Positions 9,140 through 31,224 of a DNA stretch of 32,000 nucleotides are shown piece by piece. The position numbers were made by a program, and so were the translations under genes. Each line of letters starts with the position of its first letter. The stretch's first letter is position 1. The notes beneath the pieces are model-generated. The model searched no databases and was not told the origin of the DNA. It saw nothing but the letters and a program-made list of their open reading frames with translations. Origin of the DNA: Pyrobaculum aerophilum str. IM2 (GTDB lineage Archaea; Thermoproteota; Thermoprotei; Thermoproteales; Thermoproteaceae); assembly GCF_000007225.1 (NCBI RefSeq), contig NC_003364.1, positions 210,001-242,000 on the forward strand. The letters are read 5' to 3'.

Positions 9140-9645
9140 GGCCGCGTTCAATTTTCGCCTCAGCTGTTATAAGGCGTCTTACAGCTGGTCAGTCCAAGCC
9201 ACTTGCCCCCTTAACGCCTCAGCCATTTTTTAACAACGCCGCTCGCCGCCATTGCCCCCACCCTTGTTCTATACCTGAAAGAGACACGTCCGGGTCTGGA
9301 CCGCGGGAGTGATAATCGTGTAAGTTAAGCGCCCTCTCCGTCCGTGCGAACAAGCTGTCATTCCTCTAACATTTGCGATAGGGATTTCATTTTAGTGGTG
9401 GTCACTCTCGGCAGTGCCCTTTCGGCGAGCCAGCGCCTTTCTTCTTCAATTGGCGATATTCAACACAGTCCAGCCTCAGCAAAGCCCGCCAAACTTGAAA
9501 TACCAGCGGCATTTCTAGTGAGACCTTGGCTTACCAGGGACAGCCCGCCTCAAGTTGAAAATCCCTGCTGTTGTGAATGATTTGTAGCATAGACACATGC
9601 TTCCTCATTGACTGGGCTTTGTACAGCAAGATTTATTATTCAAGG
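9140..9645 (-). pseudogene. Decayed copy of the HEPN-like (paREP2a-type) gene family seen at 17875 and 20101
   Basis: The reverse complement aligns by eye with 20101-20646. For example, 9428-9448 is the exact reverse complement of the 21-mer at 20316-20336, and 9388-9420 matches AGGGCAGTGCCGAGAGTGCCCACCACTAAAATG at 31/33 positions. The ORF track shows no minus-strand ORF of 60 aa or more here, so the frame is broken. Confidence 0.6.
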
Positions 9646-11381: not shown

Positions 11382-11817
11382 TTCCGGCAGATGCCATCCC
11401 GAATGGCGCGATTTTCCTTAGTACGCCAAAGCAATAGAGGGGTGGCAAGCAGGAGCCGTAGGAAGGTTGAAGAGGCGGTGAACATATAGGGGCAATACGA
11501 CGGAGACGAAGAAAGGAGACCTCTGGCTTATTTAACGCTTAACGGGTCTGCGCCGATAGGCTCACGGCACAGCTACTCTGTTTTAAACTTGGCACCGCTA
11601 ACCTCGATAAATGCCTACAGCCGCTCCTTCTTTGCCATTGGCTCTAAAACAATGCATAATCCACAGAAACCCAACTAAAAGAAATTTACGGCGGACAAGA
11701 CCGATTTGAAATTCTACAAGCGCCGCATGATGCCATCTGACAAACTATGAAACACCTTCCCAGAGTTTTCAAAAGACTCCACGCGATCAGCGAGCTAATA
11801 GCGATCTTCAAAAAAGA

Positions 11818-12175
11818 CTTAAAAACCAGCTCGCATCTCGCTTTATGCTCCTGACGGCGGGGTTTGTGCCTTCGCTTTTGTCGCTTTCGGCGCTTAAAAG
11901 CCGCGCGTTGAGGAAGGGAGTTTGGTTTAGACTTGACCCCGCCGCCAGGGCGCTAGTAGACGCAACTCTCCTCTACCTCAAGAGAGGCGGGGTGATTAAA
12001 TCCCCCGCCTTAATAAACGCCTTGAGGGCAGTGGCCGAGAGGATAATGGCAATGACGAGTCCCCTACGGGTATTGGCGAGGGCAGTGGGCATGGCCATTG
12101 CCCGCGCGAGGGGAATTCAAGCAGACGAGGAGAGAGCTGTGGCGCTCGGCCTACAGTGGATAAACACCCCCAAGA
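11818..12175 (+). repeat. Copy A of a ~358-bp direct repeat (promoter plus most of a 120-aa gene); copy B is at 30525-30882
   Basis: The offset between copies is constant at 18707 bp. Both begin with CTTAAAAACCAGCTC, and a perfect 122-bp core lies at 11914-12035. Confidence 0.85.
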
Positions 12176-12207
12176 GGTACAAAAACTTTGCATTAGTTGA
12201 GCCATAA
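11845..12207 (+). CDS. Multi-copy family hypothetical protein (120 aa), paralog of 30552..30908
   Basis: About 90% of residues are identical to the 118-aa ORF at 30552. The TATA-like CTTAAAAACC lies 27 nt upstream of the ATG. The function is unknown. Confidence 0.6.
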   Translation: MLLTAGFVPSLLSLSALKSRALRKGVWFRLDPAARALVDATLLYLKRGGVIKSPALINALRAVAERIMAMTSPLRVLARAVGMAIARARGIQADEERAVALGLQWINTPKRYKNFALVEP

Positions 12208-12409
12208 ACACGGATTTGCAGGCGACGTGTTTCAAACAGCGTGTAGCCAAGGCGGTTCAACCAAGCACCACGGAGTGTAGACGCCATCGCGGATGGCCGT
12301 TGGCAAAGGCGGCGTGGCGCGGTTAGAGAATACCTAAAGAGCCGCTACGGTGAGACGCCCAGAAGGGCAGTTGCCCAAGCCTTAAAGTACGCCCACGGGG
12401 CCATAGCGT

Positions 12410-12662
12410 ATGAGTGGCGGGTACTACGCCTCGCCGCGGATACACGGCTCCAAGGTGCTGTTGGCGAGACTCAGGTATCTACTCGCCGCGGCGTTAATTA
12501 GCCGTTTTGTGGCAGAAAGCCGAGACGCCCTCGATCTGCTGGAGGAGAGCTACGCCATGGCCAGATCCGGGGCGGCCTCATACGGCAAGAGGCGAGGCGT
12601 GCGTGGAGACCGCCAAGAAGGCGCTCGAGACGCTTAAAGGTGTTGAACGGGCGCTGGGCTAG
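12410..12662 (+). pseudogene. Frameshifted HEPN-like gene upstream of the nucleotidyltransferase (tentative)
   Basis: Protein-like sense is split between two frames: ...GGYYAS...AESRDALDLLEESYAMARSG in one and ...GEACVETAKKALETLKGVERALG* ending at 12662 in the other. The second frame overlaps the MNT start by 23 nt. The DNA is homologous by eye to 14190-14360. Confidence 0.35.
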
Positions 12663-12990
12663 GTACGCGTTGGAGAGATTCTCCCTCCTCAAGAGGTGGA
12701 GGGAGCTAGCCGCGATTATCGCGAGGGCGTGTAGGGAGGTGGCGGGCGACTGCGAGGTGTACGTCGTCGGCGGGGCGGTCGAGGACAGGCTGACGGTGCT
12801 GAGCGATATAGACGTGGTCGCGATGGTGGAGGACCCCGCGCTGAGGACAATTGACGTCGTTATAGCGGTGAAGAGAAGGGCCGAGGAGCTGGGGCTACCC
12901 GAGGACGCCCCTATCGACCTGAAGATCTTCACCCCCAGGAATTCCAAGAACTCTTGGAACGCGGCGTTTATAAAAAAGCCGTCAGGATAG
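12640..12990 (+). CDS. Minimal nucleotidyltransferase (MNT, Pol-beta superfamily) with a 3'-terminal frameshift
   Basis: The core VYVVGGAVEDRLTVLSDIDVV is the G[GS]x(9-13)DxD-type NTase motif. After the C5 run at 12932-12936, the alternative frame reads QEFQELLERGVYKKAVRIEP* and ends at the TGA at 12996-12998, overlapping the GTG at 12995. Confidence 0.7.
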   Translation: MLNGRWARYALERFSLLKRWRELAAIIARACREVAGDCEVYVVGGAVEDRLTVLSDIDVVAMVEDPALRTIDVVIAVKRRAEELGLPEDAPIDLKIFTPRNSKNSWNAAFIKKPSG

Positions 12991-12994
12991 AGCC

Positions 12995-14002
12995 GTGAGG
13001 ATTAAGCTGACCTTCGTGCCGGGGCTGGAGGTGGAGTTCGTCGACAGGGAGATGTCGCTTAAGAAGATGGAGGAGTGGGCTAGGGAGAGCACTAGGCATC
13101 CCCAAGTCGTATTCGGCCCAGAGGGCTGTGGTAAAACCGCTTGGCTAAGGCAGTCGGCCGTTCTGCTTAAGGAGCTCGGCTTCCACGTCATTTACGTCGA
13201 TCCTTTGCGGAAGTACTTCGAAGCGTATACAGACGTGAAGGAGGTGGCTAGGCGTCTGGCAGACGCCGCAGCTGGCGTGCTGGGAAATGCAAGGGCGTGG
13301 CTCGCTACCCTCGCCATCGATCTCACCAAGCTCTTGATAGAGAGGATGAAAAAGAAAGTCGCCGTGCTCGTAGACGACGTTTTCCAAGCAATAGGCCTCA
13401 ATGAGGCGGCGCTCTATGTCAAGGCCCTCCTCGGCCTTATAGAGTACCCGCCGAGGAGCATAGACGCCATTGTCGCCGTCGTGGCCACGAGCGAGGGAGT
13501 GACGAGGAGGGAGATCGGGCGGCACAGGTGGGCCCACCTAACGCCGATGTGGAACATGCCCCGCGACGGCTTTCGCCAGCTCTACGACAAATTGCCGGGG
13601 GAAAAGCCGCCGTTTGAAAAAGTGTGGAGGGCGACGGGCGGGAACCCCAACCTCCTCGCCGAGTTGTATAAGGCTAGGTGGGATGCCGACAGCGTTGTTA
13701 AGGAGCTGTTAAGAGAAAAAAGGATAAAAGCCTTCGTCAACTCGCTGAGCGATGCGGAGAGGGAGCTTCTGAGGCGCGCCCTCGACGACCCCGACGCCTT
13801 GTTCACCAGAGAGGGCATCCCGTTGATGGATAAGCTCGTCGACATGAACCTTCTAGTCGACACCCTGCCCGAGCGCGACCCCCGGTTCTGGGCAGGAGAG
13901 CCCCCGCCCGAGAAGGACTTGGGGCTGGGAATCGGGAAAGACGTCGCCTGGCAGACGCCCCTACACAGAGAGGCCGTGAGGAGGGCTCTAGAGGGATCCT
14001 AG
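12995..14002 (+). CDS. P-loop NTPase, archaeal ATPase (Arch_ATPase/COG1672-like; paREP2b-type) copy 1
   Basis: The N-terminus is EFVDRE..L.K.EEWA, Walker A is GPEGCGKT, Walker B-like is VAVLVDDVFQ, and a VVATSEGVTRREIG segment follows. The gene is paralogous to 14428 and 20643. Confidence 0.8.
   Translation: MRIKLTFVPGLEVEFVDREMSLKKMEEWARESTRHPQVVFGPEGCGKTAWLRQSAVLLKELGFHVIYVDPLRKYFEAYTDVKEVARRLADAAAGVLGNARAWLATLAIDLTKLLIERMKKKVAVLVDDVFQAIGLNEAALYVKALLGLIEYPPRSIDAIVAVVATSEGVTRREIGRHRWAHLTPMWNMPRDGFRQLYDKLPGEKPPFEKVWRATGGNPNLLAELYKARWDADSVVKELLREKRIKAFVNSLSDAERELLRRALDDPDALFTREGIPLMDKLVDMNLLVDTLPERDPRFWAGEPPPEKDLGLGIGKDVAWQTPLHREAVRRALEGS
13104..13269 (+). repeat. 166-bp tract identical to 14540-14705
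   Basis: A base-by-base comparison gave 166/166 identity at a constant offset of 1436 bp. Mismatches flank the tract immediately on both sides. Confidence 0.9.
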
Positions 14003-14084
14003 CAGATTTCGGCAGGCCAGCCTCTCCATCCGCGAAACTCTTGGAGCCCCCATCCCAGCTCACCATTATGCAAGCACCGACACT

Positions 14085-14431
14085 TGGAGACCGAGATTCC
14101 GGAGAGCCTCGCCAGAAACGCCGCGGGAAGGGCTTGCCGATGCCCCGAAACTACAGAAAGCGGCGCCGAGGGCGCACGCTCGAGGATTTGGCAGATTCCG
14201 GAAGGCCGGCTACTACGGCGCGAGCATGCCACTAGCAATGGGATACATCCCTCAACGCGCTGCACAGAGGCCGCGCCCTGCGCCGGCAAAGGAGGCGACG
14301 AGGCGCGTCAATTCACAAAAGGGGAGGGCCAAGCAGAGTTGGGAAGGCGCCAGGGGCGTTGAGATATGAGTTGCACCATGCTAAACCGCCGTTGTGTGAG
14401 TATTTAAGCAACAGGCCAAAGCACCTCGTGA
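14085..14431 (+). pseudogene. Decayed HEPN-like remnant upstream of ATPase copy 2
   Basis: The motif ESLARNAAGRA matches ERGLVRNAAGKA of the 17875 and 20101 proteins. AGYYGAS in another frame matches GGYYAS at 12410. The relic ends at GTGAAGAGG, the same junction sequence as at 20643. No continuous frame remains. Confidence 0.4.
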
Positions 14432-15429
14432 AGAGGGTCAAGCTATCACTAACTCCCGGCATAGAGGTGGAGTTCGTAGACAGGGAATTAGCCCTCAAGA
14501 AAGTAGAAGAGTGGGCGGAGAGGAGCACAAGACTTCCCAAAGTCGTATTCGGCCCAGAGGGCTGTGGTAAAACCGCTTGGCTAAGGCAGTCGGCCGTTCT
14601 GCTTAAGGAGCTCGGCTTCCACGTCATTTACGTCGATCCTTTGCGGAAGTACTTCGAAGCGTATACAGACGTGAAGGAGGTGGCTAGGCGTCTGGCAGAC
14701 GCCGCGGCTAAGACGCTGGGAGTTGCCGAGATCAAGCTCGCCTCCCTCGTCATTGACCTCGCCGACGAGCTGATAAGGCGGAGGAAAAGGAAAATCGCCA
14801 TACTGGCAGACGACGTCTTCCAGGCAATAGGGCTGGGGGAGGCGGCGAAGTACGTCAAGGCGCTTCTTGGAATTATCGAGTACCCGCCCAGAAGCGTAGA
14901 GGCCATAGTAGTAGTGGTAGCGACTAGCGAGGGGGTTACGAGGAGGGAGATCGGGCGGCATAGATGGGCCGATCTGCTACCTATGTGGAACCTGCCGAAA
15001 GAGGGGTTTAAGCAACTATACGACCAAATCCCCGGCGAGAAGCCGTCCTTCGAGAAGGTGTGGCGCGCGACCGGAGGCAATCCCCACCTACTGGGCGAGC
15101 TCTACGAAGCGAAGTGGGACGTCGGTATTGTCGTAGACAAGCTCGTGGAGAGGAAGAGGCTGGCGCCGGGCTTTACGGCGAAGTGGCGTCCGTGGCTTGA
15201 AAAGGCCGTGGAGGACCCAGATGCCCTCTGGAGCCCGGACGCCCCGATGGAGTTAATCGACGAGCTCGAGGCGAGAAATCTCATAGTGTATCTCCTCTCC
15301 GAGAGGGACAGCCGCCTCTGGGCTGGGGAGCCCCCACCCGAGAGAGACGCAGAGCTGGGAATAGGCCGGCGAGTCGCTTGGCAGACTCCGCTTCACAGAG
15401 AGGCGGTGAGGAGAGCGCTGGGGGCGTGA
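14428..15429 (+). CDS. P-loop NTPase, archaeal ATPase (paREP2b-type) copy 2
   Basis: It carries the same motifs as copy 1. I place the start at GTG 14428 (VKRVKLSLTPGIEVEFVDRE) by alignment with the GTG AAG AGG start at 20643. The ORF track extends it upstream to 14359. Confidence 0.8.
   Translation: MKRVKLSLTPGIEVEFVDRELALKKVEEWAERSTRLPKVVFGPEGCGKTAWLRQSAVLLKELGFHVIYVDPLRKYFEAYTDVKEVARRLADAAAKTLGVAEIKLASLVIDLADELIRRRKRKIAILADDVFQAIGLGEAAKYVKALLGIIEYPPRSVEAIVVVVATSEGVTRREIGRHRWADLLPMWNLPKEGFKQLYDQIPGEKPSFEKVWRATGGNPHLLGELYEAKWDVGIVVDKLVERKRLAPGFTAKWRPWLEKAVEDPDALWSPDAPMELIDELEARNLIVYLLSERDSRLWAGEPPPERDAELGIGRRVAWQTPLHREAVRRALGA
14540..14705 (+). repeat. 166-bp tract identical to 13104-13269
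   Basis: This is the partner of the tract described at 13104-13269. Confidence 0.9.
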
Positions 15430-15500
15430 TTAAAGCGCCGGTACGGCAGGGCGATTTAGTTATGTTTTAAAAACAAGTCCCCTAGTTTTAACCAGTGGCC

Positions 15501-15996
15501 GTGATAGTTATTCCCAAGCATATTGCTGAAGAGGCCGGGAGGAGGGGGCTAGATTTAGAGGAGTTTGTATTGAGAGCTCTCGGCGAGGCTTTAAATTTAG
15601 ACCCAGAAGAGTGCTCAAGACGAGAGTTGAAATAGCGGAGAGAAATTTAGCGGAAGCGAGGGAATACGCGGCAAAGGGAAATCCCGTACAGGCGAGCGAG
15701 AAGCTCTACAGGGCGGTGGAGGAGTGCATAAAAGCGCTTGCCGAAAAACACAAAACGCCCCAGCTGGAGATTGTTAGAAAAAGGGGGAGGTGGGACACTT
15801 GGCTATTAGGCCAAGCGGCGACTGACTTGAGCAAAATGCTCGGCGAGGAGAGGATTAAACACACGTGGGCTGTTGCATACGACGTACATGTGTGGGCCTC
15901 CACGAGGCTAAGTACAGAGTAGAAGACGTCGAGGCGGCTATGCCGCTGGCCGAGTGGCTACTAAACTACACCAAGAGGGCTATAAAGGCCGAGTAA
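15501..15996 (+). pseudogene. PaREP1-like (HEPN-superfamily) gene interrupted by two -1 frameshifts
   Basis: Three consecutive frames together give a typical PaREP1 layout. The first runs from GTG 15501: IPKHIAEEAGRRGLDLEEFVLRALGEALNLDPEE. The second runs from 15611: RVEIAERNLAEAREYAAKGNPVQASEKLYRAVEECIKALAEKH...AYDVHVW. The third runs 15898-15996: LHEAKYRVEDVEAAMPLAEWLLNYTKRAIKAE*. TTTAAAAA at 15466-15473 lies upstream of the first frame. Confidence 0.6.
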
Positions 15997-16100
15997 AGCG
16001 TCACTACTAATGGGAGTCTTGACCAGAGATCTGGACTTAATAAGGCGCATAAGCTGGCGAGGGCGCGCGGGACGGCAAAGACAAGAAGCAAAACAACAAC

Positions 16101-16648
16101 ATGTATAGTGCAGATCCTAATATGCATATAATAGACCAAGCCGTGGAGTGCCTGGCTCGGTATGACAAGAATCACAAAGAGTTTTACGAGAAAAACCGAG
16201 ATAGAATTGAGACATTCATTAAGGACTTGGGCATTTTAAATTTCATATGCACAGAAGAGATTCGCCGGCCTAAGACCCAGAGCCGACTTCTATATACGTC
16301 CAGAGAGCCGCCACGTGCTTCTCGAGGCAAAGCTATGTGTGAAGTCCGGCGCCACTGCGGGCAGATCCCTAATCCAGAAAATAACCTCAACTAATCTTGC
16401 AAACTATTTCAGAGAAGCCCGACATCTTTGATATCTTCGTCGTAATCCCGCGAGAAGTTACGCCAGTTGCGTTGGAGAAGTTACGCAAAAGTATTCAACA
16501 CGAGGTTGACGCCGTTTTGCGTGAAGTAGGCACGCCCAGAGAATTGAAATGGATTATTAAGCTCGACGTAAAGATCCCCCATTTCTCTCTCAATATGCCA
16601 CTAAGACTAGATGTAGGAGGACGCGCTATAACAATAAACATAAGATAA
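16101..16648 (+). pseudogene. Possible PD-(D/E)XK-like gene split over three frames (tentative)
   Basis: The track ORFs 16101..16394 and 16397..16648 are bridged by an unlisted open frame at 16240-16431 that reads FAGLRPRADFYIRPESRHVLLEAKL, a D...E.K nuclease-like motif. The region has lower GC. Confidence 0.3.
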
Positions 16649-16650
16649 TT

Positions 16651-16935
16651 ATGTTAATAGCTAAGCTCTTTAGGCCGCGGGCAGGGCTAAGGTCAAGGAG
16701 CGCCAGGAGAGTCGCTCTTTACTTAGGGCTAGGCTCGGTAATTGCAATTAGTAAAGTGGGAAAGGTAGAAGGCATCAAGGCCTGCGTCTGGCGCAGACAT
16801 CCCGCCGTATTGTATATTGGAAAGTGCAGAGAGGTAGAGGTGGCAATCCCCGACGCGCTTGACGAAGCAGACAACCTCGTGGAGGCTTTAGCCAAGGAAA
16901 TAGACAAAGAGCCCCTCAACCTCCCCGCGGCGTAA
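16651..16935 (+). CDS. Hypothetical protein (94 aa)
   Basis: Support is the ORF alone. I recognised no family. Confidence 0.3.
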   Translation: MLIAKLFRPRAGLRSRSARRVALYLGLGSVIAISKVGKVEGIKACVWRRHPAVLYIGKCREVEVAIPDALDEADNLVEALAKEIDKEPLNLPAA

Positions 16936-16952
16936 CCCTCAGCCTGGAGGCC

Positions 16953-17647
16953 GTGCTGGGGCCTGCCGAGCTAGGCGTTAACATAGACATATATTCGGAC
17001 GAAAAAGTGCCGAGGGCGCTGGGAATAACCGCCGAGCTGGCAGCGGTGTTAGCAGAGCCAAGGGGTATATCGGCGACGAGCCTATAGACAGCTTCTACGG
17101 GCTAGTTGCGTCGGAAATGGCTGCTGAGACTCTGCGCCAGCTGGCGAGAGAGCTCTACAGACAAGCCGCGGCTACGTACGTCAAAGTGGCCACCTACACC
17201 GGCGTGAGGCAATACGCCCTCACCGACCTAATTGCCTGGATAAAAGCCTCGAGGAACTACGCGCTCGACCTCCCAAACGCCATACCCCTATACTACAACC
17301 CGTGGCTCCGGCAAGTCGCGAAAGATCTCTACGCCCTAGCCCCCGAGGGATACAAGAGGCTGGCAGGAGCTGCAGGCTTGAGGAAGGCGCTTAGAGAGGC
17401 GCGCTCCGCCATTAAGGAGCACTTCAAGAAGAGCAACGAAGTGGAGGTAAAGCCCAGCCGCGTAGGAGAGCTGATGTTGCTCTACCCCAAGAGAGCATCG
17501 CCGCCGTGGAGGCGCTTAGAGAGGCCTTGGCCCGCGCCTTCAAATACGCCTCAGGCGACGCCGCAAGAGAGGCGTTAGAGCACAAGGGACGACTATATAA
17601 AGGCGCTTGGCTATGCGCTAAGGCGAGAGCTCACTAAAAGCACTTGA
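16953..17647 (+). pseudogene. Helical hypothetical protein gene with two or three frameshifts
   Basis: Sensible sequence continues across frames. VLGPAELGVNIDIYSDEKVPRALGITAELAAVLAEP shifts at the G4 run (17062-17065) to GYIGDEPIDSFYGLVASEMAAETLRQ. A shift at the C4 run (17485-17488) then leads to ESIAAVEALREALARAFKYASGDAAREALEHK, possibly followed by DDYIKALGYALRRELTKST*. Confidence 0.4.
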
Positions 17648-17848
17648 CGGCCCCCAGGAGAACGCAGTAGCGAATATGCGGCGAGGACTTGGAAACAGCT
17701 CAACGCCGGGGGGATTAAATCGTGGGCAAATACAAAGGCGAAAATGGGGAATAACGTCAACCTGGCCCAAAACCAGACGCGGCCAAAAATCTTACACAAC
17801 GACGTGAAGAGACAAGACAACTGGCGTTGGCAAGGCCGGGGAAAAGGC

Positions 17849-17857
17849 ATAAAAACC
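17849..17857 (+). promoter_or_regulatory. TATA-like ATAAAAACC, 26 nt upstream of GTG 17875
   Basis: The box is conserved with TATAAAACC at 20075-20083 at the same spacing from the paralogous start. Confidence 0.5.
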
Positions 17858-18002
17858 AGCGCCTAGGCCAAGACGTGGAAATACTGGAAAGGCCGCTTCC
17901 CAAGCCCTCCAGCGTGGATTACGCCTCTGCCCGCGTTTTAGAGGCTCTCGTGGAGGGGCGTCTGGCCGTGGAGTTTCTTGAAAGAGGCCTAGTGAGAAAC
18001 GC
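17852..18002 (+). repeat. 151-bp tract identical to 20078-20228 (promoter plus the first 128 nt of the HEPN-like gene)
   Basis: A base-by-base comparison shows identity at a constant offset of 2226 bp. Confidence 0.9.
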
Positions 18003-18441
18003 CGCTGGTAAGGCTCTTCAAGCTTGGAGGGCTCTGCTGGCGGCTTTGCTGAGGCTGGAGCTGGACAAGTTGATGAAAGTGGCGAATACCGACGAGGAGA
18101 GGAAGTGGCTTGCGGAGAGGGCAGTGCCGAGAGTGCCCACCACTAAAATGAAATTCCTATCGCAGATGCTAGGAGAAATAGGCTATGAAGGGCTGATTTT
18201 TGCAACGAGTACAGCATTAGATCTCCACGACTACCAATACCACGGCCCAGATCCCGACATGGTCCTCTCAAAATATAGGAGCAAGGAAGAGGCCGCCTAC
18301 GACGTTCTAGAACTTGTCGCGGAGATTGTCAAGAGAGTCGAGGGGCTAAAGGGGAGAGTCAAGTGGAGCGGCGAGTTGGAGAGAGCGCTGGAGGAGCTCA
18401 GAGAGAGGCTGAACCAGAGCCGCTCCCCAAGGGGCAATTAA
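17875..18441 (+). CDS. HEPN-like helical protein (PaREP family; paREP2a-type), solo copy
   Basis: It is paralogous to 20101..20646, with an identical N-terminal ~43 aa. Shared segments are RNAAGKA.QAWRALLAALL and LDLHDYQYHGPDPD. I set the start at GTG 17875 by alignment and TATA spacing; the ORF track starts it at 17827. Confidence 0.7.
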   Translation: MEILERPLPKPSSVDYASARVLEALVEGRLAVEFLERGLVRNAAGKALQAWRALLAALLRLELDKLMKVANTDEERKWLAERAVPRVPTTKMKFLSQMLGEIGYEGLIFATSTALDLHDYQYHGPDPDMVLSKYRSKEEAAYDVLELVAEIVKRVEGLKGRVKWSGELERALEELRERLNQSRSPRGN

Positions 18442-18787
18442 CCTCTGTGGAATGGAGGGCGAAACTCTCACCAAGGTGAAGCGGCTAATTGAGAGCGGAA
18501 AAGAGGGGCGGAATTCAGCCCCCCAGGTAAATAGCTGAGATCACGCTGTTGGAGGGCGTTTTGCGCGTCAGATTCGCCTGCCCCGAGGGCCCCAATACCG
18601 ACGTGGAGCCGCCGCCTCTGAAAACCCCAACCTTCCCATTTAGAGACGTAAAGACGGGCCTAGAGACAGTAGACGTGGAAGAGCTTAAAGAGTCGGCCGA
18701 GTGTGCGAAAAGCGACGCCCCAAACCCAGGCGCGTTGAGGAAATGAGAGGGGCGTCGCGCCCCGCCGGGGGGCTCGGCCGCTAGGCC

Positions 18788-19885
18788 ATGTTCTTCGAGC
18801 TGGGGCTGGCCCTAGCCGCGTTACACTTCGGCGTTCCCCTGGGGTACTACGCAGTCGCCAAGAGGTGGCTGAGGAAGGACTGGGGCATAAAAGAAGACGG
18901 GGGCTACCGGCCGAAAATCAGCGTGATAATACCGACGTATAACGAGGCGGAGCACATAGCCCAGAGGCTGGAGAACGTGGCCCAGAGCTACCCCAGGGAC
19001 AAGCTGGAGGTCGTCGTAGTCGACGGCGCGTCGACAGACGGCACGGCGGAAATCGCCGAGAAGTGGGCGGAGAAAGCCGGAGTCGACGTGAAAGTGGTGA
19101 GGGAGGAGCGTAGGGAGGGCAAGGCCAAGTCCCTGAACCGAGCGCTGGGGCTGGCGACTGGCGAGGTGGTGGTGATAGCAGACGCCGACGCCCTGTGGGC
19201 CCCAGACGCCTTGAGAAGGGCCGTGGCAAAGCTGGCAGATCCCTCAGTGGGAGCCGTGTCTTGCGTCAAGAGGCCCATCGGCGGGCCGGGGATAGAAGAG
19301 GGATACCGCGGCTTTTACAACGCGCTGAGGGTGGCGGAGAGCAAGGCGTGGTCTACGCCAATATTCCACGGAGAGCTGGCCGCGTTTAAGAGGGAGGCGC
19401 TGGAGGCTGTGGGCGGGTTCCCTACAGACATCGGCGCAGACGACAGCCACACGGCCACGCTCATCGCGTTGAGAGGGCTGAGGGCAATTGTGGCCGACGA
19501 CGTCCTCTGCGTGGAGACAGTGCCCGAGGAGGGCTACCACGCCTGGAGAATAAGGCGGGCCCAGCACTTAATACAACACTTCGCCAAGGCGGTCCCCCTA
19601 CTGCGCAAGGCCCCGCGGCCCTTCAGAGCCGTGCTTGCGGCCGAGGCGTATTTGCACTTGGTCAACCCCTGGATGTTCGCCGGCGCGGTCGCCGCGCTGA
19701 CGGTCTCCGCGGCCGCGGGCTCTTGGCCCGCCCTCGCGGCCCTCGCGCTCGGCGTCGCGCTACTCGCCTACAAGCCCTACAAGACGTGGGCAACCGCCCA
19801 GGCGTACCTGATGGCCGCCGCCGTCAAAAACCTCAGGACAAAAGAACTGGTGTGGGAAAAGCAGAAGAAAAATACGAAACAATGA
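18788..19885 (+). CDS. Membrane-bound family 2 glycosyltransferase
   Basis: An N-terminal TM helix is followed by ISVIIPTYNEAEHI, VVVDGASTDGT and VVVIADADALW (DxD). Hydrophobic helices lie at the C-terminus. Confidence 0.85.
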   Translation: MFFELGLALAALHFGVPLGYYAVAKRWLRKDWGIKEDGGYRPKISVIIPTYNEAEHIAQRLENVAQSYPRDKLEVVVVDGASTDGTAEIAEKWAEKAGVDVKVVREERREGKAKSLNRALGLATGEVVVIADADALWAPDALRRAVAKLADPSVGAVSCVKRPIGGPGIEEGYRGFYNALRVAESKAWSTPIFHGELAAFKREALEAVGGFPTDIGADDSHTATLIALRGLRAIVADDVLCVETVPEEGYHAWRIRRAQHLIQHFAKAVPLLRKAPRPFRAVLAAEAYLHLVNPWMFAGAVAALTVSAAAGSWPALAALALGVALLAYKPYKTWATAQAYLMAAAVKNLRTKELVWEKQKKNTKQ

Positions 19886-20079
19886 ATAAGCGCGCATACT
19901 ACGACCGAGCGGACGCCCCCTACTTGTTAAAAGAAGACCAGGCTGGGGACGCCATAGAGGCCGGCGAAGATATATTCGTCAAGCTGGACGAGAAGGGGGT
20001 CGTAGGCGTTGAGATCTGGCGCGCGTCAGATCTACTGGAGCCAACAACGGCGTTGAAACCCACTACGGCAAAGATATAA
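19882..20079 (+). CDS. DUF2283-family small protein (antitoxin-like), orphan copy (65 aa)
   Basis: The sequence AYYDRADAPYLL...IEAGEDIFVKLDEKGVVGVEIWRASDLL matches the DUF2283 pattern (YD.eaD.lyi ... D..G.ivGiEi..as). ATG 19882 overlaps the GT2 stop as ATGA. The track ORF 19723..20079 carries an N-terminal extension that I do not accept. Confidence 0.65.
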   Translation: MNKRAYYDRADAPYLLKEDQAGDAIEAGEDIFVKLDEKGVVGVEIWRASDLLEPTTALKPTTAKI

Positions 20080-20083
20080 AACC
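20075..20083 (+). promoter_or_regulatory. TATA-like TATAAAACC, 26 nt upstream of GTG 20101
   Basis: The box is conserved with the one at 17849-17857. Confidence 0.5.
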
Positions 20084-20228
20084 AGCGCCTAGGCCAAGAC
20101 GTGGAAATACTGGAAAGGCCGCTTCCCAAGCCCTCCAGCGTGGATTACGCCTCTGCCCGCGTTTTAGAGGCTCTCGTGGAGGGGCGTCTGGCCGTGGAGT
20201 TTCTTGAAAGAGGCCTAGTGAGAAACGC
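20078..20228 (+). repeat. 151-bp tract identical to 17852-18002
   Basis: This is the partner of the tract described at 17852-18002. Confidence 0.9.
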
Positions 20229-20646
20229 GGCGGGCAAGGCCTTTCAGGCTTGGAGGGCTCTGCTGGCGGCTTTGCTGAGGCTGGAGCTGGACAAGTTGAT
20301 GAATATCGCCAAGACTGAAGAAGAAAGGCGCTGGCTTGCGGAGAGGGCAGTGCCGAGAGTGCCCACCACTAAAATGGTGTCTCTATCGTACATGCTGGAA
20401 GAGGCTGGCCACTGGGGGCTATCCGCGTGGACCGCCTTGGCGTTAGATCTCCACGACTACCAATACCACGGCCCAGATCCCGACATGGCCCTTTCAAAAT
20501 ATAGGAGCAAGGAAGAGGCCGCCCAGGCTGTTTTAAAGCTAGTCACAGAAATAGCCAAAAGGGCCGAGGGGCTGAGGGGGAGGGTTAAGTGGGGCAACGA
20601 GCTTGAGAAAGCCCTCGGCGGGCTCAGGGAAAAACTCGGCGCGTGA
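20101..20646 (+). CDS. HEPN-like helical protein (PaREP family; paREP2a-type), intact and coupled to an ATPase
   Basis: This 181-aa protein has its own TATA box. Its stop TGA (20644-20646) overlaps GTG 20643 of the ATPase. Confidence 0.75.
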   Translation: MEILERPLPKPSSVDYASARVLEALVEGRLAVEFLERGLVRNAAGKAFQAWRALLAALLRLELDKLMNIAKTEEERRWLAERAVPRVPTTKMVSLSYMLEEAGHWGLSAWTALALDLHDYQYHGPDPDMALSKYRSKEEAAQAVLKLVTEIAKRAEGLRGRVKWGNELEKALGGLREKLGA

Positions 20647-21641
20647 AGAGGATACGGCTCCCCCTAGTTCCTGGCGTCGTGGTGGAGTTCGCCGATAGAG
20701 AACTGGCGTTGAAAAAAGTGGAGGAGTGGGCCCGGGGCGGGACTGCTGCTGTGCAGTTGGTGTTCGGCCCCGAGGGTTGCGGCAAGACAGCATGGCTGAG
20801 ACAATCGGCGGAGGTTCTGAGGGAGTTGGGTTTTGACGTAATTTACGTAAACCCTCTGGAGAGGGATTACCTGGCGTATATAGATCTCAAGGAGGTGGCG
20901 AGGAGACTGGCTGAGCATAGCGGCATAGCGGAAGTGAAGCTAGCCGACTTGGCAATACAGCTGGCCAAGTACGCCATTAAGAAGAGGAAGAGGAAAATGG
21001 CAGTGTTGGCCGACGATGTTTTTCAAGCAATTGGCGTCGACAAAGCTGCCTCTTACGTCAAGTGGATGCTCAGCGTAATTGAATACCCGCCGGGGGAGTA
21101 TGAAAACATAGTGGCAGTTGTGGCCACAAGCGAGGGGGTGACCAGGAGGGAGATAGGAGGGCATAGGTGGGCTAGCCCAAGGCCGATGTGGAATATGGCG
21201 AGGGAGGGCTTTAAACAGCTATACGAGCAGATACCGGGCGAAAAGCCGCCGTTTGAAGAGGCGTGGAGACTTACAGGGGGAAACCCCAAATTGTTAGGAG
21301 AGCTGTACGGGGCAAAGTGGGACGTCGACAAGGTGTTGAAAGAGCTGGCGGACAGAAAGAGGATAAACGCTTTCGTTGCAACGCTGGGCGAGGAGGAGAG
21401 GGAGCTCTTAAGGCGCGCCCTCGACGATCCCGATGTCCTATTCACTAAGGAGGGGATTCCGCTGATGGACAGGCTAGTAGATATGAACCTAATAGTGGAC
21501 ACTCTGCCGGAGCGCGACTCCTGGTTCTGGGCAGGTGAGCCTCCGCCCAAGAGAGACGTGGAGCTGGGGATCGGCCGACGAGTCGCCTGGCAGACGCCGC
21601 TCCACCGGGAGGCCGTAAGAAGAGCTTTGGAGAGCACATAA
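20643..21641 (+). CDS. P-loop NTPase, archaeal ATPase (paREP2b-type) copy 3
   Basis: It has EFADRELALKKVEEWA, Walker A GPEGCGKT, Walker B-like MAVLADDVFQ, and the conserved C-terminus WAGEPPP..D.ELGIGRRVAWQTPLHREAVRRAL. Confidence 0.8.
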   Translation: MKRIRLPLVPGVVVEFADRELALKKVEEWARGGTAAVQLVFGPEGCGKTAWLRQSAEVLRELGFDVIYVNPLERDYLAYIDLKEVARRLAEHSGIAEVKLADLAIQLAKYAIKKRKRKMAVLADDVFQAIGVDKAASYVKWMLSVIEYPPGEYENIVAVVATSEGVTRREIGGHRWASPRPMWNMAREGFKQLYEQIPGEKPPFEEAWRLTGGNPKLLGELYGAKWDVDKVLKELADRKRINAFVATLGEEERELLRRALDDPDVLFTKEGIPLMDRLVDMNLIVDTLPERDSWFWAGEPPPKRDVELGIGRRVAWQTPLHREAVRRALEST

Positions 21642-22058
21642 CGGCGTTGCATACCTTCAGCGCGCCGAGATTTAGCCGGAGAGCGTAGCCCACCTCCCTA
21701 TGGGACTGCGTAAGGGTACATGCTGATAGCTGTTCTCATAGCCGTGGCCAACACAGCCGTGGAGCCCGGCCTACAGCAGATGAACACGCAAAGGAGGTAC
21801 AAAACAGCGAATATTGCGGCCGATATATGCACGCCTTACGCTGGCCTAGCGCCCTCTCTGGCAAGACTTAAGCGTAAGCCATCGCGCTCTGAAACATCAA
21901 CCCAAACCAAGGCAGTGGAACTTCCGTCCGCATAAGGCAGTTGGGTGTGCCTGAGGTATCTAGCTTCCCCTCAACAGAGGAACTCTCAAGCTATCCAATA
22001 ACGACATCGCAGTTCCCGCCACGCTGAGCTTCACGCCGCACAGAAAGCAGAGGTTTTG

Positions 22059-22344
22059 ATGAAAGTAGAATATATAAAACACGCGGGGCTAAGGCTTCGC
22101 ATTCGAGATATAGGCGCGGAGGAGGTAGAGCATGTTCTCCAAAGGCCGCAAAAATATATTACGACGTGTTAACACGTACATGGTAGCCATTGGGCCAAGA
22201 CTTAGGAGACAAGGCCGCTGGCTTCTCGTAGTCTACACTAGAGAAGGCGACATCTACCGCGTAGTTACAGTAATCGACGCTAAAAACCCCGACCACGTAG
22301 CTAAAAGACGAGAGGAAAAAGGCAGGTGGGTGAGGGTATGGTGA
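22059..22344 (+). pseudogene. DUF4258-like toxin gene split by a +1 frameshift at an A5 run
   Basis: From ATG 22059 the frame reads MKVEYIKHAGLRLRIRDIGAEEVEHVLQRPQK and stops at 22170-22172. The track ORF 22132..22344 supplies the rest in the +1 frame: ...MVAIGPRLRRQGRWLLVVYTREGDIYRVVTVID... The junction is the A5 run at 22150-22154. Confidence 0.55.
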
Positions 22345-22556
22345 GGCGCGTGCAGTACGACCCAGAAGCCGACATCCTCTACATACTTCTGAGGGAAGGC
22401 CCCGTGGAGGACACGATAGAGGCCGGCGAGGACGTGTTCATCGAGCTGGACGAAAAGGGGGAGGTAATAGGTATAGAGATATGGCGCGCGTCGAACGTGC
22501 TTGAGTCTATAACGCAGACAATAGCGGCGAGAATAAGACAAGAGCTAGCGCGGTGA
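22338..22556 (+). CDS. DUF2283-family antitoxin-like protein (72 aa from the ATG at 22338)
   Basis: The sequence VQYDPEADILYILLREGPVEDTIEAGEDVFIELDEKGEVIGIEIWRASNVL is a strong DUF2283 pattern. The gene overlaps the end of the upstream DUF4258-like gene by 7 nt. Confidence 0.7.
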   Translation: MVRRVQYDPEADILYILLREGPVEDTIEAGEDVFIELDEKGEVIGIEIWRASNVLESITQTIAARIRQELAR

Positions 22557-22900
22557 GGGGCCGCATTATTTTTCACTACGTTTCTAGCCGCTACTTCTAC
22601 GATTCCAAGCTTCTCGAGGGCGGCATTTACGCTCTGGTCCTTTTGGACTGCAACGCCCGCCAGGCGTTGGCTTGATATCGCCGAGGTGGCGCGGGGGCTG
22701 GGGATGCCTATATTCGCCGCCTGGACGGGGGAAAACGACGCGACGCTTGAAGAGGCTGGGGGCCTACGTAGGGAGAGCCCTCGCGAAAATGGGCGCGTTC
22801 CTAAGGACTAAGGGATCTGTTGGCGCGTTAAAGGCGCTCAGAGAGGGGCGGAGCTGATGCACTACGTGAAGGCGGGAGTCCTCACGCCGCGTAGACGGCT

Positions 22901-23893
22901 ATGCGTATTTTGATGATCTCGCCTACATACTACCCCCACGTGGGCGGCGTGGAGTACGTAGTCAAGGCTGTGGCCGAGAGGCTGGCCAAGCTGGGGCACG
23001 AGGTGACGGTTCTGGCAGGGGAGCCAGCCGCTGAGAGGCCGCGGGAAGAGGAGATAAAAGGAGTTAGGGTGGTGAGGTGGCCCACTTGGAGCCCGGGCGG
23101 GGCCTACCACTTGCCGAGAAGGCGGAGCGAGTTAAAAGAGGCCGCAAGGCAGATGGCCTCTGAGTCTGACGTTGCGTACATCCACAGCGCCCACGCCGTC
23201 TTTACTGTATACGCAGGCCTCGCCGCCGCCGGGAGGACAAGGGCCATCTTCACGCCCCACTACCACGGCGGGGGGCATACGCCCTTGAGAAAGGCGCTCT
23301 GGCTTTTCTGGCGCCGCGCAGTGGGCAAGCTGGTAAAGACGGCAGACGCAGTGCACGCAGTCAGCAGGGCGGAGGCCAGGAGGGTCGCGACCCACTACCC
23401 CGAGGCATCGGCGAAGATAAAAGTGGTGCCAAACGGCGTGGAGGAAGACGTCCTCCGCCGCAGGTGGGCCGGGCGTGAGAGCGACTACGCCGTATACGCG
23501 GGGAGGCTTGAGAGGTATAAGAGAGTGGACAGGGCCATGGAGCTTGCTAATAGACTGGGCTTGAGGCTACTCGTTATCGGCGACGGCCCCGATAAGCCGC
23601 GCCTGGAGAAAATCGCCGCTAAATACGGCGCCGAGATTAGGGGCTTCCTCCCCCGCGAGGAGTACTTAAGCGCAGTCGCCGGCGCTAGATATGCGATAAA
23701 CCTCAGCGAGGCCGAGGCGTACAGCGTGTTTATAGCGGAGGCGCTGGCCATGGGCGTCCCCTCAATTGTCAGCAGGGCCATCGCGGAGAACCTAGAGGCC
23801 CAAGGCGAGGCGGTGGCTGAAGGGGTATATTTAGTCAGAAAAGCCGAGATAAAGACGTGGGACGAAGTAGTGGGAGAGCTTTTGAGGCTTTAA
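22901..23893 (+). CDS. Family 4 (GT-B) glycosyltransferase
   Basis: The N-terminus MRILMISPTYYPHVGGVEYVV is typical. The C-terminal half contains GDGP..., and EAYSVFIAEALAMGVPSI resembles the E-x7-E region. Confidence 0.85.
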   Translation: MRILMISPTYYPHVGGVEYVVKAVAERLAKLGHEVTVLAGEPAAERPREEEIKGVRVVRWPTWSPGGAYHLPRRRSELKEAARQMASESDVAYIHSAHAVFTVYAGLAAAGRTRAIFTPHYHGGGHTPLRKALWLFWRRAVGKLVKTADAVHAVSRAEARRVATHYPEASAKIKVVPNGVEEDVLRRRWAGRESDYAVYAGRLERYKRVDRAMELANRLGLRLLVIGDGPDKPRLEKIAAKYGAEIRGFLPREEYLSAVAGARYAINLSEAEAYSVFIAEALAMGVPSIVSRAIAENLEAQGEAVAEGVYLVRKAEIKTWDEVVGELLRL

Positions 23894-23900
23894 CGCGGCC

Positions 23901-25070
23901 GTGAGAATACTGGTAGTAGCCGAGAGGTACTGGCCGGAGGGAGGGGGAGGGGAGCTGGCGACTCACCTCATAATAGGCCTCCTCAGGGGAGAGGCGGAGA
24001 TAACAGTAGTCACGGGCACCCCCAGGCCCGAGCGAGTCAAAGGAGTAAATTACATATACGAGCCGCTTTTGAGGAGGGGGGAAAAGGCCGTGCTCTGGGC
24101 CAACGCCGTGAGGCTGGCCGGCACGAAGAGGTTCAGAGAATTATTGAGACAACACGACGCGGTCTACATCCCGAGATACGCATTCCCAGTTGTACCCGCC
24201 GCGGCCAAGATGGGGAAGAAAACCGTAGTCCACCTACACGGCTACGCCCTGCTGTCATACACGGCTGTTGTGCTAGCGCCCTATGAGAGGCGCAGAGTAG
24301 CGCTAGACGACTTGCGCATTGAGTGCCGAAAGGGCGTTGTACACTGCGCAACTGCCGCGGCCCTGTGGTGGCTGCCCAAGTTGGCCAGGAAGTGGATAAG
24401 ACAAGCCGACGAAGTCATATGCGTGTCGAAAAGACAAGCCCAGATAATAGCGGATGCGGCCCCAGAGCTGAGGGAAAAGGTGAGAGTGGTGTACAACCCC
24501 CGCCCCCCAGAGGAGGTGGAGAAGAGGCTGAGCGAAGTGCCCACTTTTATTTACGCGGGGGGAGACAGCCGCATTAAAGGCCTCCCCGCCGTAATTAGGA
24601 CAATCGCCCTCCTCGGAAAACGCGGACTCCGGACAAGGGTAGTGCTGACGAATAACTACGGCGAGAAAACCCGCCGGGCGCTGGAAGCGCTGGCGGCCCG
24701 CTACCCAGCCGTGGAGGTAAAGCTCACGGGCAGGGCGGGCAGAGGGGAGCTGGCGAGGCTACACGCAGAGGCCTGGGCGCTCCTCGCCCCGTCAATATGG
24801 GAAGAGCCCCTCCCGTACGCAGTATTAGAGGCGGCGGCTTGGGCCACTATGCCAGTGGCGTCGGCCGTGGGGGGAATACCCGAGATAACCGCGGGAACCC
24901 CCGCGGAGAAATACACCGTAGACCTCCGGGAAGTACCCCAAAAGGCCCTGGAGCTCGCCCAGAGCGACCCCCGCGAAGTGTTAAAAGACGCAGAAAAGAC
25001 TAGAGAGGAAGTGAGGCGGAGGTTCAGCCCCCAAGAGGCCGTCAAGAGGCTACTCGAGGCGTTTGTATAG
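23901..25070 (+). CDS. Family 4 (GT-B) glycosyltransferase
   Basis: After a GTG start, the N-terminus is RILVVAERYWPEGGGGELATH. WEEPLPYAVLEAAAWATMPV resembles the E-x7-E region. Confidence 0.8.
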   Translation: MRILVVAERYWPEGGGGELATHLIIGLLRGEAEITVVTGTPRPERVKGVNYIYEPLLRRGEKAVLWANAVRLAGTKRFRELLRQHDAVYIPRYAFPVVPAAAKMGKKTVVHLHGYALLSYTAVVLAPYERRRVALDDLRIECRKGVVHCATAAALWWLPKLARKWIRQADEVICVSKRQAQIIADAAPELREKVRVVYNPRPPEEVEKRLSEVPTFIYAGGDSRIKGLPAVIRTIALLGKRGLRTRVVLTNNYGEKTRRALEALAARYPAVEVKLTGRAGRGELARLHAEAWALLAPSIWEEPLPYAVLEAAAWATMPVASAVGGIPEITAGTPAEKYTVDLREVPQKALELAQSDPREVLKDAEKTREEVRRRFSPQEAVKRLLEAFV

Positions 25071-30480: not shown

Positions 30481-30524
30481 TCAAATAAGTGTAATATGTC
30501 TATGCAAACGCAAAGAGCGAAAAG

Positions 30525-30882
30525 CTTAAAAACCAGCTCTTAATTCGCTATATGCTCCTGGCGGCGGGGTTTGTGCCTTCGCTTTTGTCGCTTTCGGCGC
30601 TTAAAAGCCGCGCTTTGCGCAAGGGAGTTTGGTTTAGACTTGACCCCGCCGCCAGGGCGCTAGTAGACGCAACTCTCCTCTACCTCAAGAGAGGCGGGGT
30701 GATTAAATCCCCCGCCTTAATAAACGCCTTGAGGGCAGTGGCAGAGAGAATACTGTCCTCAACCTCACCCCTACGGGTACTGGCAAAGGCTGTGGGCATG
30801 GCCATAGCCCGCGCGAGGGGGATTCAAGCAGACGAGGAGAGGGCGATCGCCCTGGGAATACAGTGGATAAATACGCCGAAGC
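30525..30882 (+). repeat. Copy B of the ~358-bp direct repeat (copy A at 11818-12175)
   Basis: See copy A. The offset is 18707 bp. Confidence 0.85.
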
Positions 30883-30908
30883 AGTGGAGGCCGCAGGTGG
30901 CGGACTGA
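30552..30908 (+). CDS. Multi-copy family hypothetical protein (118 aa), paralog of 11845..12207
   Basis: The sequence is near-identical over the first ~105 aa, with the same promoter box at the same spacing. Confidence 0.6.
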   Translation: MLLAAGFVPSLLSLSALKSRALRKGVWFRLDPAARALVDATLLYLKRGGVIKSPALINALRAVAERILSSTSPLRVLAKAVGMAIARARGIQADEERAIALGIQWINTPKQWRPQVAD

Positions 30909-31224
30909 GACAAAGAAGATATGCATATCAAGCATCCCATGCTGGCTCTGTCGATCATTGTACTCGCATAAAATGGGGGACAACATACCGAGGCATATGA
31001 AGCAGATAGACAGGATCCTCAGGAGTAGGTCAACAACAGAAGCGTAAAATGACGTTAGAAGTCACGTAAAAAATGCATTTATGTACCCTATAAGAGCAAT
31101 TAGACATCCAAAAGGGAGATAGCCAAAAGACTGGAAACTGGACTGAGATATAGAGAGGAAAAATGCACTACCTCTGGATGCCTTTAAACTTAGTTGATAT
31201 CCTTCGTCAATATGATCTAAATAA

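Follow-up and report, generated by a model that had tools for sequence, protein, structure and literature searches.

Recurrent neighbourhood of paREP1-type HEPN genes and PF01637 ATPases in a variable island of Pyrobaculum: a possible conflict module

Introduction

The paREP1/paREP8 proteins (PF05942) have already been described as a HEPN family (PMC3710099), within which the HEPN-T (Parep1/8) members, represented by PDB 2q00, keep the histidine of the HEPN motif and miss its arginine (Anantharaman et al. 2013, PMC3710099). The published neighbourhoods of these genes consist of tandem paREP genes or of a minimal nucleotidyltransferase (MNT) with a restriction endonuclease, with no mention of an ATPase_2 neighbour (PMC3710099), and paREP1 has been listed as a HEPN family 'not associated with MNT' that has a 'still unidentified antitoxin' (Makarova et al. 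2013, PMC3632139). Here we analyse a stretch of 32,000 nucleotides of Pyrobaculum aerophilum str. IM2 (NC_003364.1, positions 210,001 to 242,000, hereafter the window), a chromosomal piece of a Pyrobaculum-like crenarchaeon in which three ATPases of family PF01637 (ATPase_2), numbered 1 to 3 together with the modules they belong to, stand among paREP1 and other HEPN-type genes. The 181-aa genes of the window belong to the paREP1/paREP8 family by Pfam match, HEPN fold and a histidine without the arginine; the ATPase_2 neighbour is what sets their surroundings apart from those published.

Other described systems share parts of this arrangement. Module 1 has the HEPN-then-MNT order of the HepT/MntA type VII toxin-antitoxin (TA) system and an intact MNT motif, its HEPN gene being frameshifted; the known system, however, has no third ATPase gene, and module 3 has no MNT. 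Relatives of the ATPases within PF01637 are fused to PD-(D/E)XK nuclease domains (DUF234/COG1672, DUF1703) (PMC1913061, PMC3424549), whereas the window subfamily carries no fused nuclease, and any nuclease would be the separate HEPN neighbour. The STAND NTPases of immunity (Avs, CED-4/Apaf-1, NLRs) resemble the window ATPases in combining nucleotide-binding, helical and winged-helix domains with a GxP-like motif, but the latter, at only 332 aa, have no sensor repeats or fused effector, and their fold scores do not set STAND apart from Orc/Cdc6. Bacterial HEPN-STAND fusions provide a precedent for HEPN as a STAND effector (Anantharaman et al. 2013, PMC3710099). Finally, in contrast to a classical two-gene TA operon, the paREP1-ATPase pair shows no fixed order, no general co-transcription and no strict co-occurrence.

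Results

paREP1 and ATPase_2 genes are neighbours beyond random placement

For the ATPase, scanning one genome from each species returned 272 relatives, the best 77 loci of which were used (76 from the genome collection plus the window), with the family profiles mapped onto their six-frame translations; on the paREP1 side, a metagenome scan provided 80 loci. Loci are cited below by L numbers. The best ATPase loci come from Pyrobaculum, Thermoproteus, Vulcanisaeta, Caldivirga, Desulfurococcales, Thermofilales, Nezhaarchaeales and others. When genes were placed at random inside the same loci (2000 placements, distances within 350 nt), a mean of 5.2±1.9 paREP1 copies fell near an ATPase in the genome loci, and never more than 12, against 16 of the 28 observed. 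In the metagenome loci, 30 of 32 ATPases lay near a paREP1, against 13.3±2.4 expected from random placement (maximum 21).

Seen from the metagenome paREP1 copies, an ATPase starts within 400 nt downstream on the same strand in 20 of 79 cases and ends within 400 nt upstream in 26 of 77, and at least one adjacent same-strand ATPase (within 400 nt) accompanies 28 of the 59 copies with room on both sides. Both families can also alternate in longer arrays, such as the A-P-A-P-A-P-a succession of ATPases (A) and paREP1 genes (P) in L140, and similar ones in L121, L122, L151 and L152. The paREP1-ATPase neighbourhood is thus real and specific, but neither fixed in order nor obligatory. A partner-ATPase linkage in other genomes, which the earlier note on this DNA (a reading of the letters alone) had made a test of its proposal, therefore exists for paREP1 above random placement and fails as a fixed arrangement, since either order occurs and 57% of the ATPases have no recognised upstream partner.

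Among 81 ATPases, the upstream neighbour was no recognised gene in 46 (57%), another ATPase in 15, paREP1 in 6, a protease in 5, an MNT in 4, the small gene here called U in 3, a paREP1 with a ribbon-helix-helix-like part (RHH-paREP1) in one and a HEPN gene on the opposite strand in one. Downstream (n=82), the corresponding numbers were 51 without a recognised gene, 12 paREP1, 11 ATPase, 4 RHH-paREP1, 3 HEPN and one MNT on the opposite strand. HEPN-MNT pairs adjoin the ATPase in L016, L017, L028 and the window. Neither the paREP1 nor the ATPase family was found on IMG/VR viral contigs, and a viral origin was discarded on these grounds. Among the papers on Arch_ATPase, PF01637, COG1672 and paREP that could be searched, none was found to describe the linkage; this agrees with the earlier note, which knew of no characterised system of this kind.

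A retropepsin-like aspartyl protease of about 117 aa (PF13650, E 1.7e-9) recurs about 85 nt 5' of ATPases and also about 315 nt 3' of paREP1, forming ATPase-paREP1-protease super-modules, an adjacency that is not significant at n=11. It is found at L016:3565-3924, L026:1402-1755, L045:2674-3027 and L073:3529-3924, and in L043, L101, L134 and L151.

The 181-aa protein is a paREP1 with a HEPN fold

The 181-aa gene at 20101-20646 and the solitary copy at 17875-18441 match PF05942, whose curated cutoff is 24.4 bits (Table 1), and their products share 82% aa identity, in keeping with the earlier view of the latter as a lone HEPN-like copy; the former is 70% identical to 'paREP1 [P. aerophilum IM2]' (P0184). 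Its AlphaFold2 (AF2) model (pLDDT 93.2, pTM 0.90) is an all-alpha up-down helical bundle. The top Foldseek matches, with weak E-values of 0.03-1.5, are 2q00 (probability 1.00), a Sulfolobus paREP1-type protein, and the classical HEPN structures 2hsb (TMt 0.73), 1wol, 3o10, 1ufb and 1o3u. The predicted structure therefore confirms the HEPN fold that had been anticipated for this protein. H118, within LHDYQYHGPDPD, is invariant across 34 homologues.

Two further members of the family are broken. The copy near 15501, earlier taken for another HEPN-like gene of the same kind, is a paREP1 by PF05942 (the piece 15611-15922 scores 96.5 bits) and belongs to a different subfamily, RHH+HEPN; it is spread over three frames, with profile pieces at 15492-15632 (E 4e-9), 15530-15919 (E 2e-34) and 15859-15990 (E 1e-7), and its counterpart in the 98%-identical sister genome L003 is an intact gene of 167 aa with an N-terminal RHH-like part. 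The decayed copy expected around 9140-9645 was located at 9143-9543 on the minus strand, also in three frames, with profile pieces at E 3e-12 and 1e-8 and a DNA Smith-Waterman z of 55; it forms an inverted repeat with 20316-20402 and 18091-18177.

Identity is uneven along the paREP1 pair (17852-18151 vs 20078-20377), where the 5' 300 nt, of which 23 lie ahead of the gene, are 94% identical and the rest 82%, and along ATPases 1 and 2 (12997-13290 vs 14433-14726), where it is 86% and then 74%. Such patterns suggest gene conversion between copies.

The ATPases are old paralogues maintained by selection

All three ATPases are intact, as first read, and match PF01637 at 254-261 bits (cutoff 33.2). 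They share 65-71% aa identity, with 71% between ATPases 1 and 2, and the Walker A motif GPEGCGKT and the hhhhDD Walker B ((A/V)DD) are invariant. The orthologue of ATPase 2 in a sister metagenome-assembled genome (MAG), P0041, is named 'P. aerophilum family 1964 protein' in one source. Synonymous sites among the three are saturated or nearly so and the ratio of nonsynonymous to synonymous substitution (dN/dS) is 0.14-0.22, which marks them as old paralogues maintained by selection. Across the repeats of the window (ATPases, paREP1 and U), dN/dS is 0.14-0.29, that is, purifying selection, and chance repeats were discarded as an explanation on the basis of these ratios and of the age of the paralogues.

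The AF2 model (pLDDT 88.8) shows three domains, one with the P-loop, one helical, and a small one at the C-terminus that resembles a winged helix. Its best Foldseek match is 2fna (SSO1545, a PF01637 protein; E 2e-6, TM 0.49), and 2fna, Orc1/Cdc6, DnaA, CED-4, Avs3, SAMD9 and the plant NLRs RPP1 and WRR4A match about equally well. Together with the PF01637 match, this is in line with the former description of an Arch_ATPase-type (STAND/AAA-like) NTPase. No solved structure is related by sequence to the ATPase or to the 181-aa paREP1 subfamily, and the folds of both are consequently predicted ones. The motif TGGNP is invariant in the helical domain, and the Pfam families nSTAND5 and NB-ARC are matched below cutoff. 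In this regard, a GxP motif in the helical domain reportedly belongs to the definition of STAND proteins put forward by Leipe and colleagues in 2004. The 332-aa protein ends after the winged-helix region and has no fused sensor (repeat) or effector domain, and its 120 best homologues all measure 316-377 aa.

No NCBIfam equivalog was matched and the Orc and DnaA sequence scores are weak. As the family is in addition multi-copy and variable, the ATPase is not a housekeeping orthologue, in line with the expectation set out at the start. Two other expectations fared less well. The ATPases had been put forward as possible paREP2a/paREP2b genes, an identity that the Pfam search rules out: among the matches at E <= 0.1 no such family appears for the three genes, and PF01637 is matched instead. 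The idea that the ATPases stay intact while their partners decay describes the window and not the family, for the 77 ATPase-side loci hold 56 fragment pieces against 90 full-length ATPases. Tandem copies reach at least 8 in L013 (Vulcanisaeta sp. JCM 14467) and 3-5 in L014 and L024.

Spacing and promoter-like elements

The gaps between the two genes are stereotyped, measuring 79-106 nt where the ATPase comes first and 108-131 nt where paREP1 does, and the conserved spacers hold TATA-like boxes about 25-30 nt before GTG starts (AAAGACTTTTAAAAA before paREP1, AAAGCTTAATTA before the ATPase). In the window, such boxes precede ATPase 1, ATPase 2, both paREP1 genes and U, and no box was found upstream of ATPase 3. 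Here the GTG of the ATPase and the paREP1 stop codon share 4 nt (GTGA), a start/stop overlap that defines a subtype present in the window, L079, L048 and L078. Given the overlap and the lack of a box of its own, ATPase 3 is co-transcribed with paREP1, and the overlapped subtype is the only one that is necessarily so. Pyrobaculum is known for leaderless transcription, and the position of the other boxes, so close to the GTG starts, would fit separate leaderless transcripts. Adjacency is kept in spite of divergence, with a mean ATPase distance of 0.36-0.38.

Modules 1 and 2 and the U genes

Module 3, described from the outset as an intact HEPN-like gene followed by its ATPase, consists of the overlapping paREP1-ATPase 3 pair. 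Module 1 proved to be, as proposed, a frameshifted HEPN gene, an MNT and an ATPase. The HEPN gene has a weak Pfam match (Table 1); the C-terminal 31 aa of its reading frame 12410-12637 match the HEPN protein of L028, an Acidilobaceae MAG, with 45% identity (E 1e-5), and its 'PRGH' motif is found in a different frame, at about 12393-12410. The order U-HEPN-MNT-ATPase of L028 is that of window 11845-14002. The MNT motif GGx10SDID (GGAVEDRLTVLSDID) fits the nucleotidyltransferase pattern G[SG]x9-13Dx[DE], and the protein clusters with MNTs located 5' of ATPases in L028 and L022. An MNT is present in module 1 and absent from modules 2 and 3, and modules 1 and 3 differ in the HEPN family of their partners.

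For module 2, the HEPN-like relic that had been placed at 14085-14360 could not be confirmed. The open reading frame (ORF) 14084-14362 has no Pfam match; the spacer between ATPases 1 and 2 contains a 35-nt match to the 'LVRNAAGKA' region of paREP1 at the syntenic offset, with a z of 4.6 that is within the maximum of 200 shuffles, and local family profiles on six-frame pieces reach E 0.02. A HEPN or paREP1 relic in 14003-14427 was hence not demonstrable by Pfam, six-frame family profiles or Smith-Waterman comparison with shuffles. The claim of a HEPN or nucleotidyltransferase partner directly 5' of each ATPase stands for modules 1 and 3 and is unproven for module 2.

The U protein has no Pfam match. 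Its family (BLAST cluster C6) counts 12 members, spread over 11 loci, and 6 of the members stand directly 5' of an ATPase on the same strand; the two window copies (30520-30819 vs 11813-12112 in the DNA comparison of Table 1) show a dN/dS of 0.26. No ATPase follows copy 2 inside the window. The 18.7-kb stretch that the copies bracket includes the three ATPase modules as well as the glycosyltransferase cluster. In Desulfurococcales and other MAGs (L011, L033, L050, L057), the family recurs 30-75 nt 5' of ATPases.

Table 1. Coordinates and key evidence for the features of the window
Feature	Position	Strand	Evidence and remarks
Decayed paREP1 pseudogene, three frames	9143..9543	-	tblastn with 181-aa paREP1, 45-59% identity
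U gene copy 1, 120 aa, uncharacterised family	11845..12207	+	TATA-like box at about -27
Frameshifted classical HEPN gene, MNT partner	12393..12637	+	ORF 12410-12637, Pfam HEPN E 0.089
MNT, intact	12640..12990	+	PF01909 E 1.7e-4, 22.3 bits vs cutoff 21
ATPase 1, PF01637 ATPase_2, 335 aa	12995..14002	+	E 1.4e-77; TATA-like box TTTATAAAAAA at about -25
Spacer ATPase 1-ATPase 2, 425 nt	14003..14427	.	possible paREP1 remnant, unproven
ATPase 2, PF01637, GTG start inside the 14359 ORF	14428..15429	+	E 1.5e-77; TATA-like box TATTTAAG at about -27
paREP1 of RHH+HEPN subfamily, broken over three frames	15492..15990	+	PF05942 E 1.2e-27
Solitary intact paREP1	17875..18441	+	PF05942 E 1.2e-28, 99.8 bits (ORF 17827-18441); TATA-like box at about -27
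GT2 (glycosyltransferase) gene	18788-19885
DUF2283-like small gene	19882..20079	+	clusters with the 22326-22556 protein; directly 5' of the paREP1-ATPase pair
paREP1 (HEPN-T Parep1/8), 181 aa, intact	20101..20646	+	PF05942 E 3.2e-28, 98.4 bits
ATPase 3, PF01637, 332 aa	20643..21641	+	E 1.9e-75; GTG start
DUF2283 gene	22326-22556		PF10049 E 3e-20
GT4 (glycosyltransferase) genes	22901-25070
GT2 gene	29278-30480
U gene copy 2	30552..30908	+	91% DNA identity to copy 1

The modules lie in a variable island

Between 9 and 31 kb, small multi-copy genes are interspersed with a cluster of glycosyltransferase and membrane-protein genes, and the region is a variable island with lineage-expanded 'conflict' genes. 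Relatives of the sequence include an ENA hot-spring metagenome contig (L001) identical to window 20102-25377 and contig JAVZUI010000039 ('Pyrobaculum sp. isolate DRTY-8_201808_bins_12'), 98% identical to window 13043-16310. Compared with window 19672-19884, the sister strains L079 (1352-3757) and L159 (6590-8304) carry an extra 2.4-kb insertion between flanks that are 95-98% identical. This insertion, absent from the window, has the GT2 gene on one side and the DUF2283-paREP1-ATPase module on the other. It carries a gene pair of typical defence type, for a 449-aa AAA_15/AAA_21 (OLD/ABC-like) ATPase and a protein of 122 aa; its presence in the sisters and not in the window makes this spot a strain-variable hotspot. 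According to a published comparison of P. oguniense with P. arsenaticum, paREP1/8 elements lie at 6 of their 16 largest regions of difference (PMC3558965). In the window, no tRNA, Rfam family, tandem repeat or terminal repeat was found to bound the modules, and no integrase was found at them.

The DUF2283-like gene at 19882-20079 has the same position in the sister strain L079, and it shares with the DUF2283 gene at 22326-22556 a 72-nt segment of 76% identity. The latter gene is overlapped by an upstream gene of 70 aa (22132-22344), which seems N-terminally shortened in the window and clusters with proteins that begin with 'HALRRMEERG' and that we take to be DUF4258-like. A segment of about 490 nt (16310-16803), in or beside the small ORFs at 16397-16935, to which no function is assigned, is present in the window and missing from the sister contig L003, which is otherwise 92-98% identical. 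Base composition departs from the rest at two places. Window 27000-29000 is very GC-rich (0.68-0.69), with an extreme AT skew of +0.5, and coincides with genes of the glycosylation cluster on the minus strand whose products are polytopic membrane proteins (27185-27970 and 27967-29244); window 31000-32000 is AT-rich (GC 0.43 vs about 0.57 elsewhere) and contains no convincing ORF, tRNA, Rfam match or repeat array.

Discussion

The findings presented here lead us to propose, tentatively, that in variable islands the PF01637 ATPase may be a minimal NTPase switch of STAND/Orc-like type to which HEPN effectors are loosely coupled. In such an arrangement, the ATPase would act as an NTP-driven switch or regulator with a winged helix able to bind nucleic acid, and the neighbouring HEPN protein, above all paREP1, would be a latent RNase effector or toxin, so that the pair might behave like a TA or abortive-defence module in which the ATPase is the long-sought partner of paREP1. 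The coupling could be physical or regulatory. That the other neighbours of the ATPase are also of conflict type (HEPN-MNT, RHH-paREP1 and the retropepsin-like protease) supports the coupled reading, which would also answer the question about the paREP1 antitoxin raised by Makarova et al. 2013 (PMC3632139). A bolder version seems to us rather unlikely. In it, paREP1 and the 'family 1964' ATPase would together make up a two-component conflict system of Thermoproteales that has so far gone unrecognised; the ATPase would supply paREP1 with its missing regulator or antitoxin and, more broadly, serve as a common switch for interchangeable separate effectors (HEPN RNases, the retropepsin-like protease).

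Several observations weigh against any tight coupling. A HEPN-superfamily neighbour within 350 nt accompanies 23 of the 73 ATPases with room on both sides, no gene is recognised upstream of 46 of 81, and the ATPase precedes paREP1 as often as it follows it. Adjacency is found chiefly in Pyrobaculum and Thermoproteus, and Vulcanisaeta has HEPN-free tandem ATPase arrays with gaps of 5-11 nt in which many copies are frameshifted. RHH-paREP1, classical HEPN, U and protease genes do not adjoin ATPases above random placement at the available sample sizes. Separate TATA-like boxes are usual for both genes, unlike in classic TA operons, and no paREP1-ATPase fusion was found among the top 120 matches of a chimeric query. 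The distances of paired genes do co-vary (Mantel r 0.65 for paREP1-then-ATPase and 0.58 for the reverse, p 0.0005), in favour of coupling, but this signal is confounded by organism phylogeny; nor did this mirror-tree comparison discriminate a 'true' gene order, the two coefficients being similar. Against PADLOC-DB 2.0, the ATPase gave P-loop-level matches only (mad8, E 9e-5 over about 100 aa; BrxD, 0.0097), and paREP1, MNT and U gave none. With regard to the putative effector, the Rx4-6H RNase motif sought in the 181-aa protein is incomplete, as no arginine lies 4-6 residues before H118; judged by its sequence, this lowers confidence in the predicted RNase activity of paREP1 and not in its HEPN membership.

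The main rival to the coupled reading is that adjacency reflects shared history. An ancestral ATPase-paREP1 segment, spacers and promoters included, would have been multiplied by segmental duplication and unequal crossing-over within paREP-rich variable regions, leaving co-amplified neighbours that have no functional coupling and act or decay each on its own. We consider this somewhat doubtful too, and only slightly less probable than the coupled reading. Much in the loci is consistent with it: the spacers are highly conserved and carry separate TATA-like boxes, the alternating arrays have fixed spacing, pseudogenes of both families are frequent, both pairs with uneven identity (94% vs 82% for paREP1, 86% vs 74% for ATPases 1 and 2) bear signs of gene conversion, and paREP elements mark indels between Pyrobaculum genomes (PMC3558965). 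The absence of fusions among the chimeric-query matches and the large number of ATPases that have no HEPN gene beside them point the same way, the ATPase thriving without paREP1 in other orders. Co-amplification sits less easily, however, with pairs that still keep adjacency and spacing at about 50-65% ATPase identity, with purifying selection on both genes and with the one subtype that evolved a 4-nt start/stop overlap, implying co-translation. It also leaves aside that the ATPase stands beside HEPN-type genes of independent origin, namely the HEPN-MNT pairs of L016, L017, L028 and the window.

Two further explanations concern the ATPase itself. TM-scores to CED-4, Avs3 and plant NLR modules that equal that of 2fna, the weak nSTAND and NB-ARC matches in Pfam, the invariant TGGNP and the recurrence of several different small genes 20-130 nt upstream on the same strand would all suit a split modular STAND system, in which the 332-aa ATPase is a common oligomerising switch and swappable upstream effectors (paREP1, HEPN-MNT, protease, U) take the place of the fused N-terminal effector of Avs and NLR proteins. 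Yet the ATPase has no sensor domain, paREP1 lies downstream of it more often than upstream, the adjacency of U, protease and HEPN is not above random placement, and 57% of the ATPases have no recognised upstream gene, all of which makes this version improbable in our view. Less probable still is that the HEPN genes are bystanders and the ATPase either binds DNA, like Orc1/Cdc6 or DnaA, on behalf of a selfish or integrated element or has a housekeeping role. The fold similarity to Orc1/Cdc6 and DnaA, the winged-helix C-terminus and the multi-copy, island-resident character of the gene speak for this; against it stand its absence from the viral contigs searched, the lack of integrase, tRNA and terminal repeats at the modules, and the weak Orc and DnaA sequence scores with no NCBIfam equivalog. 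A housekeeping role also accords poorly with copies that number at least 10 per genome, vary and are often broken.

Both gene families and the assignment of paREP1 to HEPN were known already, while the statistically supported paREP1-ATPase_2 neighbourhood, the alternating arrays and the overlapped subtype appear to be new. paREP1 is among the largest expanded families of Pyrobaculum and its relatives and has been an orphan HEPN 'toxin candidate' since 2009-2013, and PF01637 ATPases are among the most abundant uncharacterised ATPases of archaea. The neighbourhood link supplies a concrete, testable pairing of the two. If the coupled reading is wrong, these loci record the growth of paREP arrays by co-amplification; if it is right, a HEPN system under a minimal STAND-like NTPase would be added to the sparse catalogue of archaeal defence and TA systems.

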